This document shows, piece after piece, positions 18,674 to 24,323 of a stretch of 64,000 bases of DNA. The notes below the pieces were generated by a model. That model did not search any database. It was not told the origin of the DNA and was given only the letters and a program-made list of their open reading frames with translations. Source of the stretch: Escherichia coli. Its GTDB lineage: Bacteria > Pseudomonadota > Gammaproteobacteria > Enterobacterales > Enterobacteriaceae. The DNA lies in assembly GCF_003334765.1 (NCBI RefSeq), contig NZ_QOWT01000014.1; one strand, written 5' to 3'. Positions within the stretch are counted from its first letter, which is position 1, and every line of letters begins with the position of its first letter. The position numbers were made by a program, and so were the translations under genes.

Positions 18674-19684
18674 ATGAGACGAGAACTTGCCATCGAATTT
18701 TCCCGCGTCACCGAATCAGCGGCGCTGGCTGGCTACAAATGGTTAGGACGCGGCGATAAAAACACCGCGGACGGCGCGGCGGTAAACGCCATGCGTATTA
18801 TGCTCAACCAGGTCAACATTGACGGCACCATCGTCATTGGTGAAGGTGAAATCGACGAAGCACCGATGCTCTACATTGGTGAAAAAGTCGGTACTGGTCG
18901 CGGCGACGCGGTAGATATTGCTGTTGATCCGATTGAAGGCACGCGCATGACGGCGATGGGCCAGGCTAACGCGCTGGCGGTGCTGGCAGTAGGCGATAAA
19001 GGCTGCTTCCTCAATGCGCCGGATATGTATATGGAGAAGCTGATTGTCGGGCCGGGAGCCAAAGGCACCATTGATCTGAACCTGCCGCTGGCGGATAACC
19101 TGCGCAATGTAGCGGCGGCGCTCGGCAAACCGTTGAGCGAACTGACGGTAACGATTCTGGCTAAACCACGCCACGATGCCGTTATCGCTGAAATGCAGCA
19201 ACTCGGCGTACGCGTATTTGCTATTCCGGACGGCGACGTTGCGGCCTCAATTCTCACCTGTATGCCAGACAGCGAAGTTGACGTGCTGTACGGTATTGGT
19301 GGCGCGCCGGAAGGCGTAGTTTCTGCGGCGGTGATCCGCGCATTAGATGGCGACATGAACGGTCGTCTGCTGGCGCGTCATGACGTCAAAGGCGACAACG
19401 AAGAGAATCGTCGCATTGGCGAGCAGGAGCTGGCACGCTGCAAAGCGATGGGCATCGAAGCCGGTAAAGTATTGCGCCTGGGCGATATGGCGCGCAGCGA
19501 TAACGTCATCTTCTCTGCCACCGGTATTACCAAAGGCGATCTGCTGGAAGGCATTAGCCGCAAAGGCAATATCGCGACTACCGAAACGCTGCTGATCCGC
19601 GGCAAGTCACGCACCATTCGCCGCATTCAGTCCATCCACTATCTGGATCGCAAAGACCCGGAAATGCAGGTGCACATCCTCTGA
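18674..19684 (+). CDS. glpX: class II fructose-1,6-bisphosphatase
   Basis: Track ORF 379 aa; ATG at 18674 gives 336 aa MRRELAIEFSRVTESAALAGYKWLGRGDKNTADGAAVNAMR. Confidence 0.94.
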   Translation: MRRELAIEFSRVTESAALAGYKWLGRGDKNTADGAAVNAMRIMLNQVNIDGTIVIGEGEIDEAPMLYIGEKVGTGRGDAVDIAVDPIEGTRMTAMGQANALAVLAVGDKGCFLNAPDMYMEKLIVGPGAKGTIDLNLPLADNLRNVAAALGKPLSELTVTILAKPRHDAVIAEMQQLGVRVFAIPDGDVAASILTCMPDSEVDVLYGIGGAPEGVVSAAVIRALDGDMNGRLLARHDVKGDNEENRRIGEQELARCKAMGIEAGKVLRLGDMARSDNVIFSATGITKGDLLEGISRKGNIATTETLLIRGKSRTIRRIQSIHYLDRKDPEMQVHIL

Positions 19685-19704
19685 TTGATTTGATCGATTG
19701 AGCC

Positions 19705-19733
19705 TTCCAGTCCTTCGGGACTGGAATTTTTTT
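19705..19733 (+). terminator. intrinsic terminator of glpFKX
   Basis: TTCCAGTCC-TTCG-GGACTGGAA followed by T7. Confidence 0.85.
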
Positions 19734-19780
19734 GTTCGGAGAACGAAGATAAGGCAAGTCAATCAAAACAGGAGAAAAAC

Positions 19781-20527
19781 ATGGCTGATTGGGTAACAGG
19801 CAAAGTCACTAAAGTGCAGAACTGGACCGACGCCCTGTTTAGTCTCACCGTTCACGCCCCCGTGCTTCCGTTTACCGCCGGGCAATTTACCAAGCTTGGC
19901 CTTGAAATCGACGGCGAACGCGTCCAGCGCGCCTACTCCTATGTAAACTCGCCCGATAATCCCGATCTGGAGTTTTACCTGGTCACCGTCCCCGATGGCA
20001 AATTAAGCCCACGACTGGCGGCACTGAAACCAGGCGATGAAGTGCAGGTGGTTAGCGAAGCGGCAGGATTCTTTGTGCTCGATGAAGTGCCGCACTGCGA
20101 AACGCTATGGATGCTGGCAACCGGTACAGCGATTGGCCCTTATTTATCGATTCTGCAACTAGGTAAAGATTTAGATCGCTTCAAAAATCTGGTCCTGGTG
20201 CACGCCGCACGTTATGCCGCCGACTTAAGCTATTTGCCACTGATGCAGGAACTGGAAAAACGCTACGAAGGAAAACTGCGCATTCAGACGGTGGTCAGTC
20301 GGGAAACGGCAGCGGGGTCGCTCACCGGACGGATACCGGCATTAATTGAAAGTGGGGAACTGGAAAGCACGATTGGCCTGCCGATGAATAAAGAAACCAG
20401 CCATGTGATGCTGTGCGGCAATCCACAGATGGTGCGCGATACACAACAGTTGCTGAAAGAGACCCGGCAGATGACGAAACATTTACGTCGCCGACCGGGC
20501 CATATGACAGCGGAGCATTACTGGTAA
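19781..20527 (+). CDS. fpr: ferredoxin/flavodoxin-NADP(+) reductase
   Basis: 248-aa ORF MADWVTGKVTKVQNWTDALFSLTVHAPVLPFTAGQFTKLGLEIDGERVQRAYSYVNSP. Confidence 0.95.
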   Translation: MADWVTGKVTKVQNWTDALFSLTVHAPVLPFTAGQFTKLGLEIDGERVQRAYSYVNSPDNPDLEFYLVTVPDGKLSPRLAALKPGDEVQVVSEAAGFFVLDEVPHCETLWMLATGTAIGPYLSILQLGKDLDRFKNLVLVHAARYAADLSYLPLMQELEKRYEGKLRIQTVVSRETAAGSLTGRIPALIESGELESTIGLPMNKETSHVMLCGNPQMVRDTQQLLKETRQMTKHLRRRPGHMTAEHYW

Positions 20528-20531
20528 GCGG

Positions 20532-20960
20532 TTACTTATCGATAAACGGCACGATGAGCAAATCCGCACTCATCTTATTGATCATCCCGCGATATGCCGG
20601 CATCAAACGGTTGATAAATGAGTGATGATGACCACAGACAAGGAGGTCGCACTGCTCTTTTTGCATAATTTCCAGCAGTGTTTCCGGCATTTCTCCGCGT
20701 TCAATACGCAGTTTTGTCTTCGGCCATTGAATATTTTTCGTCAGTTTATACAGCTTGTTATCCGACTTATTCTTCAACAATTGAAGAATATCTTCTGTTG
20801 CAGGGAAGTAGATACCCGGATACAACTCGCTTAAGCCATCATCAATATGAATTAACGTCAGGTGAGCGTCATTATGTCTGGCGAGCTCCAGGGCTTTATT
20901 CACCAGTAAGGCATCTTCTTCATTCCCGGAAATTGCCACGCCAATGTGTTTATAAGCCAT
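20532..20960 (-). CDS. uspD: universal stress protein D
   Basis: 142-aa [43 protein letters not shown]; UspA-family fold; position next to fpr. Confidence 0.9.
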
Positions 20961-20986
20961 GTTTAACTCCTTCTAAAGCAACTCCA

Positions 20987-21286
20987 TCAAGCTAACGAAC
21001 GCAGTGATAACTCAAAAATAATCATCTCGGCCTGGCATGAGAAAGTGAAGGCCGCATCAAGCTCAACTTGCCCCTCCAGATCCTTAATCTTATAGGCCAC
21101 GCTGGCCCCTTCATCTGCAGAGGATGTAGCGGCGGCAAGCTCTTTCAGTTTGGTCATAAAAGACTCTGCTTCTTCGCGGGTGGCAAAAAAGCGCGAAAAC
21201 TTACTGGTACAGTTGTCGTTATCAATCACCGTACCGATATCAATCGCACATCCTTTAGTACTGCATTTATCTACGACATCTTTCAT
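20987..21286 (-). CDS. yiiS: YiiS, small protein of unknown function (DUF406 family)
   Basis: 99-aa [29 protein letters not shown]...; 26 bp upstream of uspD, likely co-transcribed. Confidence 0.85.
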
Positions 21287-21497
21287 AGGGCACCTCTGTA
21301 TATTCGCCTCTCTGTCGATTACGACTTAAGAATAATGCGCCGTTAAGGGAAGAACAAACAAGTAATGATCTTATGGATTACCATTTTTTTTGATATTGCT
21401 TAAGGTGAAGAGTTCAGAAGGATTTTCCGGGTATTGTCATTTGCATCGTGGAAATAACAATCCCGGAAAAAAATAGCAGTAAGAGATATATTAAAGG

Positions 21498-21938
21498 TTA
21501 ATTACTTGATTTATTGTCGGCTTTATACTTCACATCCTGAGTATCTTTACCATATTTATTTTCGCCTTGTGTGCCAACAAACGCACCAAGATCGATAAGC
21601 ATCATCACCAGAATCAACGTCGGGACAAAACGCCCCACCGCCCATTGCCAGACACCCGGTAAAATCGCCCAGTTACCCGCCAGCAGCATCCACGCCACAA
21701 TCATCAGAAATGCCCATGCGCCGGAACGCCCGCGATCATGCAAGCGCTTAACAGTTACTGCCGCTGTTGGCCAGAGCAAGCACACAAGGCAAAACGCCGC
21801 GGTCTGAATATCGAGTAGATTCTTACCCGCCAGTGAGAAAAGCACCAGCATGCCTGCGAACCACAGGCCTATCCAAATCCAGAAATCACGGCGTCCAATA
21901 CGCCCTTTAAATGAGAATAACCATTGCTGTATGGTCAT
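21498..21938 (-). CDS. yiiR: YiiR, DUF805-family inner membrane protein
   Basis: 146-aa ORF MTIQQWLFSFKGRIGRRDFWIWIGLWFAGMLVLF; hydrophobic segments. Confidence 0.88.
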   Translation of the reverse strand: MTIQQWLFSFKGRIGRRDFWIWIGLWFAGMLVLFSLAGKNLLDIQTAAFCLVCLLWPTAAVTVKRLHDRGRSGAWAFLMIVAWMLLAGNWAILPGVWQWAVGRFVPTLILVMMLIDLGAFVGTQGENKYGKDTQDVKYKADNKSSN

Positions 21939-22038
21939 GTAAGTTCCTTGATGGTTGTCTTTTCCAGGATTCTACCCTTTTGACAAGGGCGACAGATATC
22001 GTTTTAATCGGAGCCAGTCATAACAAAAGGTACTGTCA

Positions 22039-22638
22039 ATGAAGCCAGGGTGTACGCTGTTTTTTCTCTTATGTTCTGCATTAACCGTTACAACAGCGGC
22101 GCATGCACAAACACCAGATACGGCAACGACCGCGCCTTATCTGCTGGCTGGAGCCCCTACTTTCGATCTCTCCATCAGCCAGTTTCGAGAAGACTTTAAC
22201 AGCCAGAATCCCAGCCTGCCACTGAACGAATTTCGTGCCATCGACAGCAGTCCCGACAAAGCCAATCTCACTCGTGCTGCAAGTAAAATTAATGAGAACT
22301 TGTATGCTTCTACAGCGCTGGAGCGCGGTACCTTAAAAATCAAAAGCATTCAAATGACCTGGCTACCCATCCAGGGGCCAGAGCAAAAAGCCGCGAAAGC
22401 GAAAGCTCAGGAATACATGGCAGCGGTGATCCGCACACTCACCCCATTAATGACCAAAACACAAAGCCAGAAAAAACTGCAGTCGCTACTAACGGCGGGG
22501 AAAAACAAACGTTATTACACCGAGACAGAAGGTGCACTGCGTTATGTTGTCGCGGACAACGGCGAAAAGGGGCTGACCTTCGCTGTTGAACCGATTAAGC
22601 TGGCGCTATCTGAATCGCTTGAAGGTTTGAATAAATGA
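22039..22638 (+). CDS. yiiQ: YiiQ, secreted protein of unknown function (signal peptide)
   Basis: 199-aa ORF with signal peptide MKPGCTLFFLLCSALTVTTAAHA. Confidence 0.88.
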   Translation: MKPGCTLFFLLCSALTVTTAAHAQTPDTATTAPYLLAGAPTFDLSISQFREDFNSQNPSLPLNEFRAIDSSPDKANLTRAASKINENLYASTALERGTLKIKSIQMTWLPIQGPEQKAAKAKAQEYMAAVIRTLTPLMTKTQSQKKLQSLLTAGKNKRYYTETEGALRYVVADNGEKGLTFAVEPIKLALSESLEGLNK

Positions 22639-22745
22639 CAAAAAGCAAAGCCTTTGTGCCGATGAATCTCTATACTGTTTCACAGACCTGCTGCCCTGCG
22701 GGGCGGCCATCTTCCTTTATTCGCTTATAAGCGTGGAGAATTAAA

Positions 22746-23513
22746 ATGCGACATCCTTTAGTGATGGGTAACTGGAAACTGAACGGCAGCCGCCACATGG
22801 TTCACGAGCTGGTTTCTAACCTGCGTAAAGAGCTGGCAGGTGTTGCTGGCTGTGCGGTTGCAATCGCACCACCGGAAATGTATATCGATATGGCGAAGCG
22901 CGAAGCTGAAGGCAGCCACATCATGCTGGGTGCGCAAAACGTGGACCTGAACCTGTCCGGCGCATTCACCGGTGAAACCTCTGCTGCTATGCTGAAAGAC
23001 ATCGGCGCACAGTACATCATCATCGGTCACTCTGAACGTCGTACTTACCACAAAGAATCTGACGAACTGATCGCGAAAAAATTCGCGGTGCTGAAAGAGC
23101 AGGGCCTGACTCCGGTTCTGTGCATCGGTGAAACCGAAGCTGAAAATGAAGCGGGCAAAACTGAAGAAGTTTGCGCACGTCAGATCGACGCGGTACTGAA
23201 AACTCAGGGTGCTGCGGCATTCGAAGGTGCGGTTATCGCTTACGAACCTGTATGGGCAATCGGTACTGGCAAATCTGCAACTCCGGCTCAGGCACAGGCT
23301 GTTCACAAATTCATCCGTGACCACATCGCTAAAGTTGACGCTAACATCGCTGAACAAGTGATCATTCAGTACGGCGGCTCTGTAAACGCGTCTAACGCTG
23401 CAGAACTGTTTGCTCAGCCGGATATCGACGGCGCGCTGGTTGGTGGTGCTTCTCTGAAAGCTGACGCCTTCGCAGTAATCGTTAAAGCTGCAGAAGCGGC
23501 TAAACAGGCTTAA
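22746..23513 (+). CDS. tpiA: triosephosphate isomerase
   Basis: 255-aa [33 protein letters not shown]...IIGHSERR...[11 protein letters not shown]. Confidence 0.97.
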
Positions 23514-23522
23514 GTCTGACAG

Positions 23523-23552
23523 GTGCCGGATTTCATATCCGGCACTTACTTT
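23523..23552. terminator. hairpin terminator between convergent tpiA and cdh
   Basis: GTGCCGGAT-TTCAT-ATCCGGCAC, 10 bp after tpiA stop, followed by T-rich run. Confidence 0.7.
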
Positions 23553-23567
23553 CCTTAACTCTTCGCC

Positions 23568-24323
23568 TTAACGCAAAATCTCACACTGATGATCCTGAAT
23601 TTCCTCGGCTGAAGCACGGTTAAGCGTCAGTAGATTTCGTTGTGTCGCCAGCAATACAAATGAGTTATCACTCTGCCGTACCATCGCCAGCCCGTAGCGT
23701 CCCATATGTTCCCGCGCCTCAGGTACTTCTTCTGCCAGCATCATAAATGGGCTGCGTTGTACCAGTTCGCTTTCCGTTACCCGACGCGCCAGGTATTCAT
23801 GCCCGCGCAAACCACCTGGCAGTGGCAACCAGCGGCTGCTGATGTTCGCCAGATTGTTATCCAGCTGTTTGCGCACATCAGGACGAATACAAGAGATATG
23901 AATATGAAAATGGTTTTGCGTACGCCCGGTGCGGGAGTTGATCGCCAAAGAAACCGCGCGATCGGGAACCGGCTGGCCGTATTTTTTGCTCATAAAATCA
24001 CGCGCCTGCCAAGCCAACCAAAAGAAGTTCGGCGTTGAAGGATCGGTCAACAAAGGACTTTCAGTACCGTTAATACGATACGTTGGCATCAACAGATATT
24101 GCAGTGGGCCATTAAGATCTTTTAAAACCACGTATCCGGCATTGGGTTTGACTTCCGCACATGGCGAAGGATTTTGATTTTGCTGCTGATTGGGCAAACA
24201 TTCCTCAAGGACAATCTTACGTAATGTATCCGACTCTTCACCGGTTAATTTCCAGTAACCAATACCGGCAGCCACAACGGCGATAACTATCATCACCAAA
24301 AAAAGAAGACCCGCTTTTTTCAT
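23568..24323 (-). CDS. cdh: CDP-diacylglycerol pyrophosphatase
   Basis: Track ORF 315 aa overlaps sbp; ATG at 24323 gives 251 aa [26 protein letters not shown]... Confidence 0.9.

Follow-up and report, generated by a model that had tools for sequence, protein, structure and literature searches.

The DNA between fpr and tpiA is very probably not one cluster of four genes but three units that have promoters of their own and belong to two evolutionary layers. The units would be yiiS–uspD, yiiR with its promoter, and yiiQ behind a promoter-like element that is conserved. yiiR and yiiQ would represent a divergent pair of long standing that has kept its place next to tpiA throughout the Enterobacteriaceae, and yiiS–uspD is an insert of low GC content, about 1 kb long, which the Escherichia lineage gained between fpr and yiiR, two convergent genes. 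The original prediction had described all four genes as one cluster; this grouping did not hold up, as yiiQ lies on the opposite strand, yiiR is unresponsive to the regulator YdeO, and a 211-bp spacer with a hairpin splits yiiR from yiiS. Independent transcription, which the same prediction had named as a finding that would speak against it, largely applies to yiiR and yiiQ.

The locus itself is ordinary and already known: it is textbook E. coli K-12 sequence whose operon has been published, and its importance beyond annotation hygiene is small. Of the four proteins, three are unremarkable members of the 'y-ome'. What the analysis adds is that the apparent cluster is a composite, an Escherichia-specific yiiS–uspD insert next to an ancient yiiR/yiiQ pair; that the pairing of a DUF406 gene with a universal stress protein (Usp) gene recurs once, on mobile DNA; and that YiiS is a lineage-specific paralogue of the widely conserved protein YfcZ. 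From these points come two cheap hypotheses for workers on Usps and the y-ome, a YiiS–UspD interaction and a role of YfcZ with fadIJ.

Layout of the locus and its four genes

The window, meaning the whole 64,000-nucleotide stretch that was analysed, comes from the E. coli chromosome, and several sequenced strains of the species match it at 100% identity. Its relevant features are listed here by position.

19781-20527, plus strand: fpr, flanking gene
20532-20960, minus strand: uspD (yiiT), class I universal stress protein of 142 aa; open reading frame, second gene of the yiiS–uspD operon
20961-20986, minus strand: yiiS–uspD spacer of 26 bp, seen in the sequence, holding the uspD ribosome-binding site GAAGGAG
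20987-21286, minus strand: yiiS, DUF406 (YfcZ/YiiS family) protein of 99 aa; open reading frame, first gene of the operon
21287-21422, minus strand: AT-rich promoter/regulatory region of yiiS, from Escherichia alignment and published YdeO ChIP-chip, EMSA and yiiS-lacZ data
21423-21470, minus strand: stable hairpin that lies 28 nt past the stop codon of yiiR, from RNA folding and alignment
21498-21938, minus strand: yiiR, DUF805 (Pfam PF05656) inner-membrane protein of 146 aa with four predicted transmembrane segments; open reading frame
21980-22008, plus strand: candidate yiiQ promoter, TTGACA, 17 nt, TTTAAT; both hexamers invariant in 14 genera
22039-22638, plus strand: yiiQ, DUF1454 predicted periplasmic protein of 199 aa; open reading frame with a predicted signal peptide at residues 1-23 (AHA|Q)
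22671-22707, plus strand: TATACT, resembling a -10 element (22671-22676), and a hairpin (22690-22707) upstream of tpiA, from an 11-genus alignment
22746-23513, plus strand: tpiA, flanking gene

The four open reading frames are present as predicted: their coordinates, the RefSeq annotation, which gives these four genes too, and the family models all agree. All of the 5426 complete E. coli genomes searched contain the uspD–yiiQ region (at least 95% identity). In comparisons with E. albertii, E. fergusonii and Salmonella, dN/dS was 0.04-0.10 for all four genes, a sign of purifying selection, so the reading frames are real constrained genes rather than chance. The predicted gene identities were likewise right, with NCBIfam or Pfam matches for UspD, YiiS, YiiR and YiiQ. 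A permissive Rfam scan of 19500-23700 returned one chance-level miRNA match inside tpiA and no known RNA in the spacers, and none of the four proteins matched the anti-phage defence models of PADLOC.

The yiiS–uspD insert and its operon

Two lines of evidence mark yiiS–uspD as an Escherichia insert. First, the order fpr, yiiR, yiiQ–tpiA is kept in 52 Enterobacteriaceae species loci, as far as the contigs reach, and the only ones of the 52 species with yiiS–uspD at the fpr–yiiR junction are E. coli, E. albertii and E. fergusonii. The 49 non-Escherichia loci keep yiiR–yiiQ without yiiS–uspD; in Salmonella and Citrobacter koseri, for example, the layout is fpr, yiiR and yiiQ–tpiA. The conservation in position that had been claimed for all four genes is thus borne out for yiiR–yiiQ–tpiA, in the 52 loci, and fails for yiiS–uspD, which is confined to Escherichia. 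Second, base composition drops across the pair: GC content is 0.43 for uspD (0.431), 0.46 for yiiS, 0.49 for both yiiR and yiiQ, 0.53 for tpiA and 0.54 for fpr, with 0.519 for the whole window, and segments of 300 bp range from 0.37 to 0.48 over uspD, yiiS and the 211-bp spacer and from 0.51 to 0.59 on the glpX–fpr side.

We detected no convincing direct or inverted repeats or mobile-element scars around yiiS–uspD (the best repeat family, 30 nt at 70% identity, is probably due to chance), and the empty site of Salmonella and Citrobacter carries REP-like palindromes. Because no repeats or scars mark an insertion, the pair may instead have been lost in other genera; gain in Escherichia needs far fewer events than several independent losses.

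The 26-bp gap had been taken to suggest an operon, and published work confirms it: yiiS–uspD is one transcription unit directly controlled by YdeO, with each gene induced about 5-fold by RT-qPCR, YdeO ChIP-chip, EMSA and yiiS-lacZ data mapping to the spacer upstream of yiiS, and yiiR unaffected (PMC4222967). GadX binding and an acid-resistance phenotype of the yiiS knockout have also been described (PMC4918353), a rapid acid shift raises both yiiS and uspD (PMC2270276), and AppY ChIP-seq sites lie at yiiS and uspD (bioRxiv 10.1101/2022.02.28.482378). The locus is the K-12 yiiS–uspD locus (b3922-b3923, in the YdeO/GadX acid-resistance regulon), with the same genes, order, 26-bp gap and upstream spacer and no difference, so this regulation carries over directly.

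The sequence agrees with a bicistronic arrangement: the genes share a strand, are co-induced in the published data, have a second counterpart pair elsewhere, and are separated by a short gap in which there is a strong Shine-Dalgarno sequence (GAAGGAG) for uspD and in which a consensus scan of 20961-20986 found no promoter-like or terminator-like site. The yiiR–yiiS spacer (211 bp) is AT-rich, with a GC content of 0.37, and the yiiS promoter region within it is nearly identical across E. coli, E. albertii and E. fergusonii by alignment. The exact YdeO hexamer ATTTCA is absent from 21287-21497 and shows no enrichment in the window as a whole; the published YdeO box at yiiS must therefore be degenerate. 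In the mechanism we propose, a bicistronic stress operon would be transcribed from this AT-rich spacer, and its expression would rise on acid shift and in response to YdeO, GadX and AppY, AraC-type regulators of acid resistance. An internal uspD promoter may also lie within yiiS.

The second pair consists of a 99-aa DUF406 protein (62% identity) and a 140-aa Usp (57% identity), separated by a 29-bp gap (locus L008) and located downstream of asrABC on rare mobile DNA. An obligate link to asrABC was considered and rejected, given that asrABC occurs in 59 E. coli genomes and an adjacent Usp gene in only 4.

Co-transcription and this single further instance of the pair suggest that YiiS and UspD are functionally coupled. 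It is somewhat unlikely that the genes are co-transcribed only through joint acquisition and that their proteins work separately, coupled neither physically nor through a pathway. Such independence would fit with most DUF406 genes lacking a Usp neighbour, as seen for the widespread YfcZ branch by fadL and fadIJ and for the DUF406 genes of Klebsiella, Kluyvera and distant gammaproteobacteria. It would also fit with rare accessory islands that retain Usp, the DUF406 copy being unannotated (in complete genomes with the accessory copy, Usp alone is annotated and DUF406 appears decayed), and with descriptions of UspD phenotypes that do not mention yiiS. It sits less well with an order, orientation and gap of about 26-29 bp kept in two pairs that share 57-62% protein identity in unrelated contexts, and with the yiiS knockout having an acid-resistance phenotype of its own within the same regulon (PMC4918353).

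yiiR, yiiQ and the tpiA side

YiiR matches Pfam DUF805 (PF05656) at 9.5e-19 with the full model covered, and its hydropathy profile contains four segments of at least 1.6, at residues 19-37, 44-62, 75-93 and 104-122. A KRxHDxG loop is present in 55 of 55 orthologues. YiiQ matches Pfam DUF1454 (PF07305) at 5.5e-92 over model positions 2-189 of 189. By heuristic features, all 50 of its orthologues carry a signal-peptide architecture (N-terminal K/R, hydrophobic core and small-x-small site), and none of the 50 has a lipobox. The expectation of a membrane YiiR and a secreted YiiQ thus fared well at the level of sequence: YiiR is a predicted four-helix inner-membrane protein, and YiiQ is probably exported by Sec to the periplasm. 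PDB sequence searches with either protein gave no significant match.

Downstream of yiiR, the hairpin at 21423-21470 folds at -22.8 kcal/mol (z = -6.55), and alignment shows conserved arms, a variable loop and a compensatory change from T:A to C:G in E. albertii and the divergent E. coli L017. The hairpin may form the yiiR 3′ end or act as an insulating element. Because no U-tract follows its stem on either strand and no intrinsic terminator was found between yiiR and yiiS, some transcription could read through from yiiR into yiiS. yiiR itself is probably transcribed from its own promoter.

Within the 100-bp divergent spacer between yiiR and yiiQ, the arrangement TTGACA-17-TTTAAT before yiiQ is invariant in 14 genera and is probably yiiQ's own promoter. 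The consensus promoter and terminator scan, whose counts were not above those in shuffled sequence, missed motifs that alignment later showed; it passed over this one because base 2 of its -10 hexamer is T, not A. Upstream of tpiA, an alignment of 11 genera shows an invariant TATACT and a hairpin with co-varying arms, which together point to a promoter of tpiA's own in the yiiQ–tpiA spacer; the scan also lists this hairpin as terminator-like.

A closer bond between yiiR and yiiQ, as a linked envelope pair of a membrane protein and its periplasmic partner co-regulated from the shared 100-bp spacer, seems rather unlikely. Their divergent layout, with a spacer of about 100-111 bp, recurs in each of the 52 species loci that extends far enough, the spacer motifs are invariant across 14 genera, and the proteins are predicted in adjacent compartments. 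On the other hand, the neighbouring genes, the essential tpiA and fpr on the other side, could alone preserve this order, and the two families probably differ in range, YiiQ relatives occurring only in Enterobacterales and DUF805 being a broad family in Pfam. The literature on yiiQ, yiiR and DUF805 likewise yielded screen mentions only: an antibiotic allele screen for yiiR and a Salmonella desiccation Tn-seq screen for yiiQ.

YiiS, UspD and their known relatives

The description of the genes as functionally open holds for the biochemistry of YiiR and YiiQ and goes too far for UspD, which has a superoxide and iron phenotype (PMC8509486), and for YiiS, which has an NMR structure (PMC2860719).

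YiiS scores 197 bits (197.4) against NF007435 (cut-off 130), 131 bits against TIGR00743 (cut-off 71) and 1.3e-28 against Pfam DUF406 (PF04175). Its solved structure, 2k3i, is a monomer with residues 1-28 disordered, and a conserved Glu was proposed as a ligand site (PMC2860719). The sample used for NMR was in 10 mM DTT. The protein fits the DUF406 fold, with the beta-alpha-beta-beta-alpha order of 2k3i and 2jz5 and a disordered N-terminus. Among 30 aligned DUF406 sequences F82 never varies, and conservation reaches at least 90% at C84, E87, I90 and F91 (E87 in native numbering is E89 in the tagged construct). YiiS is a small alpha/beta protein, monomeric and probably cytoplasmic, in which the N-terminus is disordered and contains Cys and the Glu87/Cys84 surface is conserved; most likely it binds a small ligand or a partner and takes part in the stress response of UspD.

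UspD scores 329.2 bits against the NCBIfam UspD equivalog NF007436 (cut-off 203) over residues 1-142 of 142, and matches H. influenzae UspA (structure 1jmv) at 7e-22. Reviews assign UspD to the class I Usps and give superoxide sensitivity and altered intracellular iron as mutant phenotypes (PMC4750201, PMC8509486), and uspD is induced by stationary phase and ppGpp according to published reviews. The ATP-binding motif G-2x-G-9x-G(S/T), defined in PMC8509486, is restricted to the UspF/G type (PMC4750201, PMC8509486); a regular-expression search for G-2x-G-9x-G[ST] did not find it in UspD, which is a class I, non-ATP-binding Usp.

A bolder version of the YiiS–UspD coupling, which we regard as improbable, makes the two proteins a dedicated, horizontally mobile stress module: YiiS, by way of the flexible N-terminus with its Cys residues and the conserved Glu87/Cys84 surface, would sense or carry a metal or a ligand, and would act directly on UspD, which lacks ATP binding, or together with it, to control the balance of iron, sulfur or redox state during acid or anaerobic stress. 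If true, it would explain both the iron phenotype of UspD and the position of the second pair right after the Fe-S enzyme genes asrABC, and by extension YfcZ would be an analogous accessory for fadIJ and fadL, genes of anaerobic fatty-acid oxidation.

Very improbable is a single stress/envelope module of all four genes, with YiiS/UspD as a cytoplasmic sensor pair, YiiR in the membrane and YiiQ in the periplasm: adjacency in every E. coli genome, products predicted in three compartments (cytoplasm, inner membrane and periplasm) and a synonymous divergence between E. coli and E. fergusonii that is higher over the whole uspD–yiiQ block than in its flanks, so that within the genus the block may travel as a single allele, are outweighed by the opposite strand of yiiQ, a YdeO response in yiiS and uspD and none in yiiR, the 49 loci with yiiR–yiiQ only, a second DUF406–Usp pair without a DUF805 or DUF1454 neighbour and a literature in which we found no link among the four.

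Like the class I proteins UspA and UspC, UspD consists of one Usp domain of about 142 aa, spans the full UspA and UspC models and lacks the ATP-binding motif. It is nevertheless distinct from UspA, scoring only 96 bits on the UspA model (cut-off 202), and whereas UspA is widespread, UspD is limited to Escherichia/Shigella save for rare mobile copies.

Outside its own family, the YiiS fold matches only generic ferredoxin-like or DCoH-like folds. Membership of the pterin-4a-carbinolamine dehydratase (DCoH) family was considered and rejected, as identity in alignments is 4-10%, a resemblance rather than membership; what is shared with DCoH is the generic ferredoxin-like beta-alpha-beta-beta-alpha fold, also matched by many unrelated and designed proteins. 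The structure paper gives 11-12% identity to T. thermophilus DCoH, with catalytic residues not conserved (PMC2860719).

YiiS has a known paralogue in YfcZ (DUF406/UPF0381), whose gene lies between fadL and fadI-fadJ: a member of the same Pfam and NCBIfam family, 43% identical to YiiS over 84 residues, with C84, E87, F82 and the QAE..IF helix in common. YfcZ has a C-CC cluster and a SEPC motif, both of which YiiS lacks. From E. coli out to distant gammaproteobacteria, YfcZ keeps fadL and fadIJ as neighbours; YiiS-type genes are limited to a handful of enterobacterial genera, and in Escherichia a Usp gene accompanies them.

The four genes between fpr and tpiA

The window is E. coli chromosome, in which RefSeq annotates the order glpK, glpX, fpr, uspD, yiiS, yiiR, yiiQ, tpiA, cdh and sbp, and a 2.4-kb query over the four genes between fpr and tpiA matched every one of 5426 complete E. 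coli genomes, with 95–100% identity. The original prediction of four genes at this place is confirmed, its coordinates agreeing exactly with the ORF list and the raw sequence:

20532–20960, minus strand: uspD, 142 aa
20987–21286, minus strand: yiiS, 99 aa
21498–21938, minus strand: yiiR, 146 aa
22039–22638, plus strand: yiiQ, 199 aa

Profile searches also bore out the family labels of all four proteins (UspD, DUF406 for YiiS, DUF805 for YiiR and DUF1454 for YiiQ). Purifying selection acts on all four genes (dN/dS 0.04–0.10 against E. albertii, E. fergusonii and Salmonella), and their products gave zero matches to defence-system models (PADLOC).

UspD, a universal stress protein (Usp), scores 329 bits against its NCBIfam equivalog model (cut-off 203) and aligns along its entire length with H. 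influenzae UspA (1jmv, 7e-22). The ATP-binding motif G-2x-G-9x-G(S/T) was not found in its sequence, an absence expected in class I Usps (PMC4750201; PMC8509486); reviews credit UspD with defence against superoxide-generating agents and an effect on intracellular iron (PMC8509486). YiiS matches NF007435 at 197 bits (cut-off 130) as well as Pfam DUF406, and is identical at 98 of 99 residues to the S. flexneri protein of NMR structure 2k3i, a monomer with approximately 28 disordered N-terminal residues and two helices packing a three-stranded sheet. That structure resembles DCoH/PCD, with a conserved Glu as proposed ligand site and no function assigned (PMC2860719). YiiR shows four hydrophobic segments together with the KRxHDxG loop of DUF805. 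YiiQ has a conserved signal-peptide architecture without a lipobox, and a PDB sequence search found no solved relative; its family extends across Enterobacterales (Yersinia and Serratia through to Proteus and Providencia) and has no characterised member (AFDB50).

Only 4 bp (20528–20531) separate the stop codons of the convergent fpr and uspD, into which an intergenic terminator cannot fit, and in several other genera the 3′ ends of fpr and yiiR likewise abut or overlap. Three strains, WEM25, HCP8S3_I1 and MSB1_1D, carry an IS1 insertion within the interval 20400–22800, seen as a two-piece match spanning 3177 bp versus 2401 bp, otherwise 100% identical, with an IS1 transposase annotated beneath.

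Two evolutionary layers

Gene-context look-ups found all four genes in E. fergusonii, and in Salmonella and Citrobacter koseri the arrangement glpFKX-fpr, yiiR (minus), yiiQ (plus)-tpiA, without yiiS or uspD. A YiiQ alignment, used to scan a single genome of each species, yielded 52 Enterobacteriaceae loci, on which we drew a tblastn map. The order and orientation of fpr, yiiR, yiiQ and tpiA are constant in every locus reaching far enough, among genera that include Citrobacter, Salmonella, Enterobacter, Kluyvera, Pluralibacter, Yokenella, Trabulsiella, Pseudocitrobacter and Intestinirhabdus, whereas E. coli, E. albertii and E. fergusonii alone have yiiS-uspD between fpr and yiiR. The base composition fits an insert: GC in 300-bp windows is 0.37–0.48 over uspD, yiiS and the 211-bp spacer versus 0.51–0.59 on the glpX-fpr side (per gene, uspD 0.43, yiiS 0.46, yiiR and yiiQ 0.49, tpiA 0.53 and fpr 0.54). 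The claim that all four genes are conserved in position therefore stands for yiiR and yiiQ but not, beyond one genus, for yiiS and uspD. Almost all close UspD homologues come from Escherichia or Shigella. The empty site in Salmonella and Citrobacter holds REP-like palindromes; neither repeats nor scars of mobile elements were found beside the Escherichia insert.

Between E. coli and E. fergusonii (locus L014), synonymous divergence is 1.0–1.3 for uspD, yiiS and yiiQ and 0.59 for yiiR, versus only 0.18–0.30 for glpX, fpr and tpiA on either side, so that the middle 2 kb has a recombination history different from that of its flanks. Against E. albertii the divergence is more even (0.25–0.64).

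The yiiS-uspD operon and the spacers

The 26 bp from the yiiS stop to the uspD ATG contain solely a strong ribosome-binding site, GAAGGAG. The operon predicted from this spacing is correct and already known, because the literature describes yiiS-uspD as one transcription unit (PMC4222967). YdeO, an acid-resistance AraC-type regulator like GadX and AppY, was shown by ChIP-chip in vivo and by EMSA in vitro to bind the spacer preceding yiiS; it increases expression of a yiiS-lacZ fusion and induces yiiS and uspD alike by approximately 5-fold (log10 0.72 for yiiS, 0.70 for uspD) (PMC4222967). GadX also binds this spacer, and knocking out yiiS weakens general acid resistance (PMC4918353); rapid acid shift raises yiiS and uspD together (PMC2270276), and AppY ChIP-seq places sites at both (bioRxiv 10.1101/2022.02.28.482378). 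The implied four-gene unit does not hold: yiiQ is on the opposite strand, and yiiR is unaffected by the YdeO that induces yiiS and uspD (PMC4222967).

At the uspD start (20958–20964, minus strand, AAACATG) an ACA overlaps the ATG, and a paper on the MazF regulon lists the uspD transcript among those cleaved at an ACA lying 2 nt before the start codon (PMC5001579). Cleavage by MazF could therefore free a leaderless uspD mRNA from the bicistronic message.

The 100-bp divergent yiiR/yiiQ spacer contains, on the plus strand, TTGACA (21980–21985), 17 nt and TTTAAT (22003–22008), invariant in 14 enterobacterial genera; this candidate yiiQ promoter was passed over by a consensus scan because the second base of its −10 element is T. 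The yiiQ-tpiA spacer is highly conserved on the plus strand, with an invariant TATACT (22671–22676) followed by a GC-rich hairpin (22690–22707) whose arms co-vary. From this pattern, the two are probably tpiA's own promoter and a 5′-UTR hairpin, and the hairpin could also end yiiQ transcripts. In the yiiR-yiiS spacer, a very stable minus-strand hairpin (21423–21470; −22.8 kcal/mol, z = −6.6) lies 28 nt past the yiiR stop, its stem lengthened by U-run and A-run flanks. Among Escherichia species its loop varies and its arms are conserved, with a single compensatory change, T:A to C:G, in E. albertii and in a divergent E. coli. It may mark the yiiR 3′ end; a canonical intrinsic terminator is ruled out because neither strand has a U-tract after the stem. 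None of these three spacers matches Rfam.

DUF406 genes with and without a Usp partner

The YiiS family is small (77 representatives at 50% identity among 1.84 billion proteins). In an alignment of 30 DUF406 sequences, F82 is invariant and C84, E87, I90 and F91 are at least 90% conserved; the Cys cluster of the flexible N-terminus reads CxxxxC in YiiS and C-CC in members of the YfcZ type. Two further settings of the family concern us here:

L008, 2232–5423 (also L009, L010 and L074): asrABC loci, followed in rare genomes by a second, diverged DUF406-Usp pair
L073, 2501–2785: yfcZ, between fadL and fadI-fadJ in E. coli

In the second pair, a 99-aa DUF406 gene 62% identical to YiiS is followed after 29 bp by a Usp 57% identical to UspD; the pair comes directly after asrA, asrB and asrC (anaerobic sulfite reductase, named by NCBIfam equivalogs) and lies within an accessory island with AlpA, Hha and YfjJ-type genes. 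The pair is rare, being present in 4 of the 5426 complete E. coli genomes, against 59 with asrABC; in one complete genome, TUM12357, the Usp is annotated and the DUF406 gene is not. In Salmonella, a contig carrying integrase and plasmid-replication genes retains the same Usp and only a remnant of DUF406. The asrABC genes are borne by rare accessory islands and some conjugative Escherichia plasmids. Elsewhere DUF406 genes lack a Usp neighbour: in Klebsiella (adjoining a TonB-dependent receptor), in Kluyvera and, between fadL and fadI-fadJ, in distant gammaproteobacteria. The recurrence of the pair is only moderate support for a functional coupling of YiiS with UspD.

Three proteins of 787–1083 aa (P0341, P0347 and P0354) match a DUF406 query in 5–6 separate stretches at weak E-values (1e-6 to 1e-4), and may be repeat proteins built with DUF406-like units.

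In E. coli the fadL/fadIJ position is held by yfcZ, annotated 'YfcZ/YiiS family protein', which is present in all 5426 genomes and whose product is 43% identical to YiiS. Distant gammaproteobacteria (L068–L072) retain the fadL-fadI-fadJ arrangement or at least the fadL adjacency; this link of DUF406 with genes of fatty-acid uptake and anaerobic beta-oxidation is conserved and unexplained. Taken together, the finding is real but ordinary: the genes are annotated in E. coli, the operon is documented and the other two y-genes are unrelated. Our modest additions are an origin of yiiS-uspD specific to Escherichia, a rare mobile twin of this pair and the paralogy of YiiS and YfcZ.
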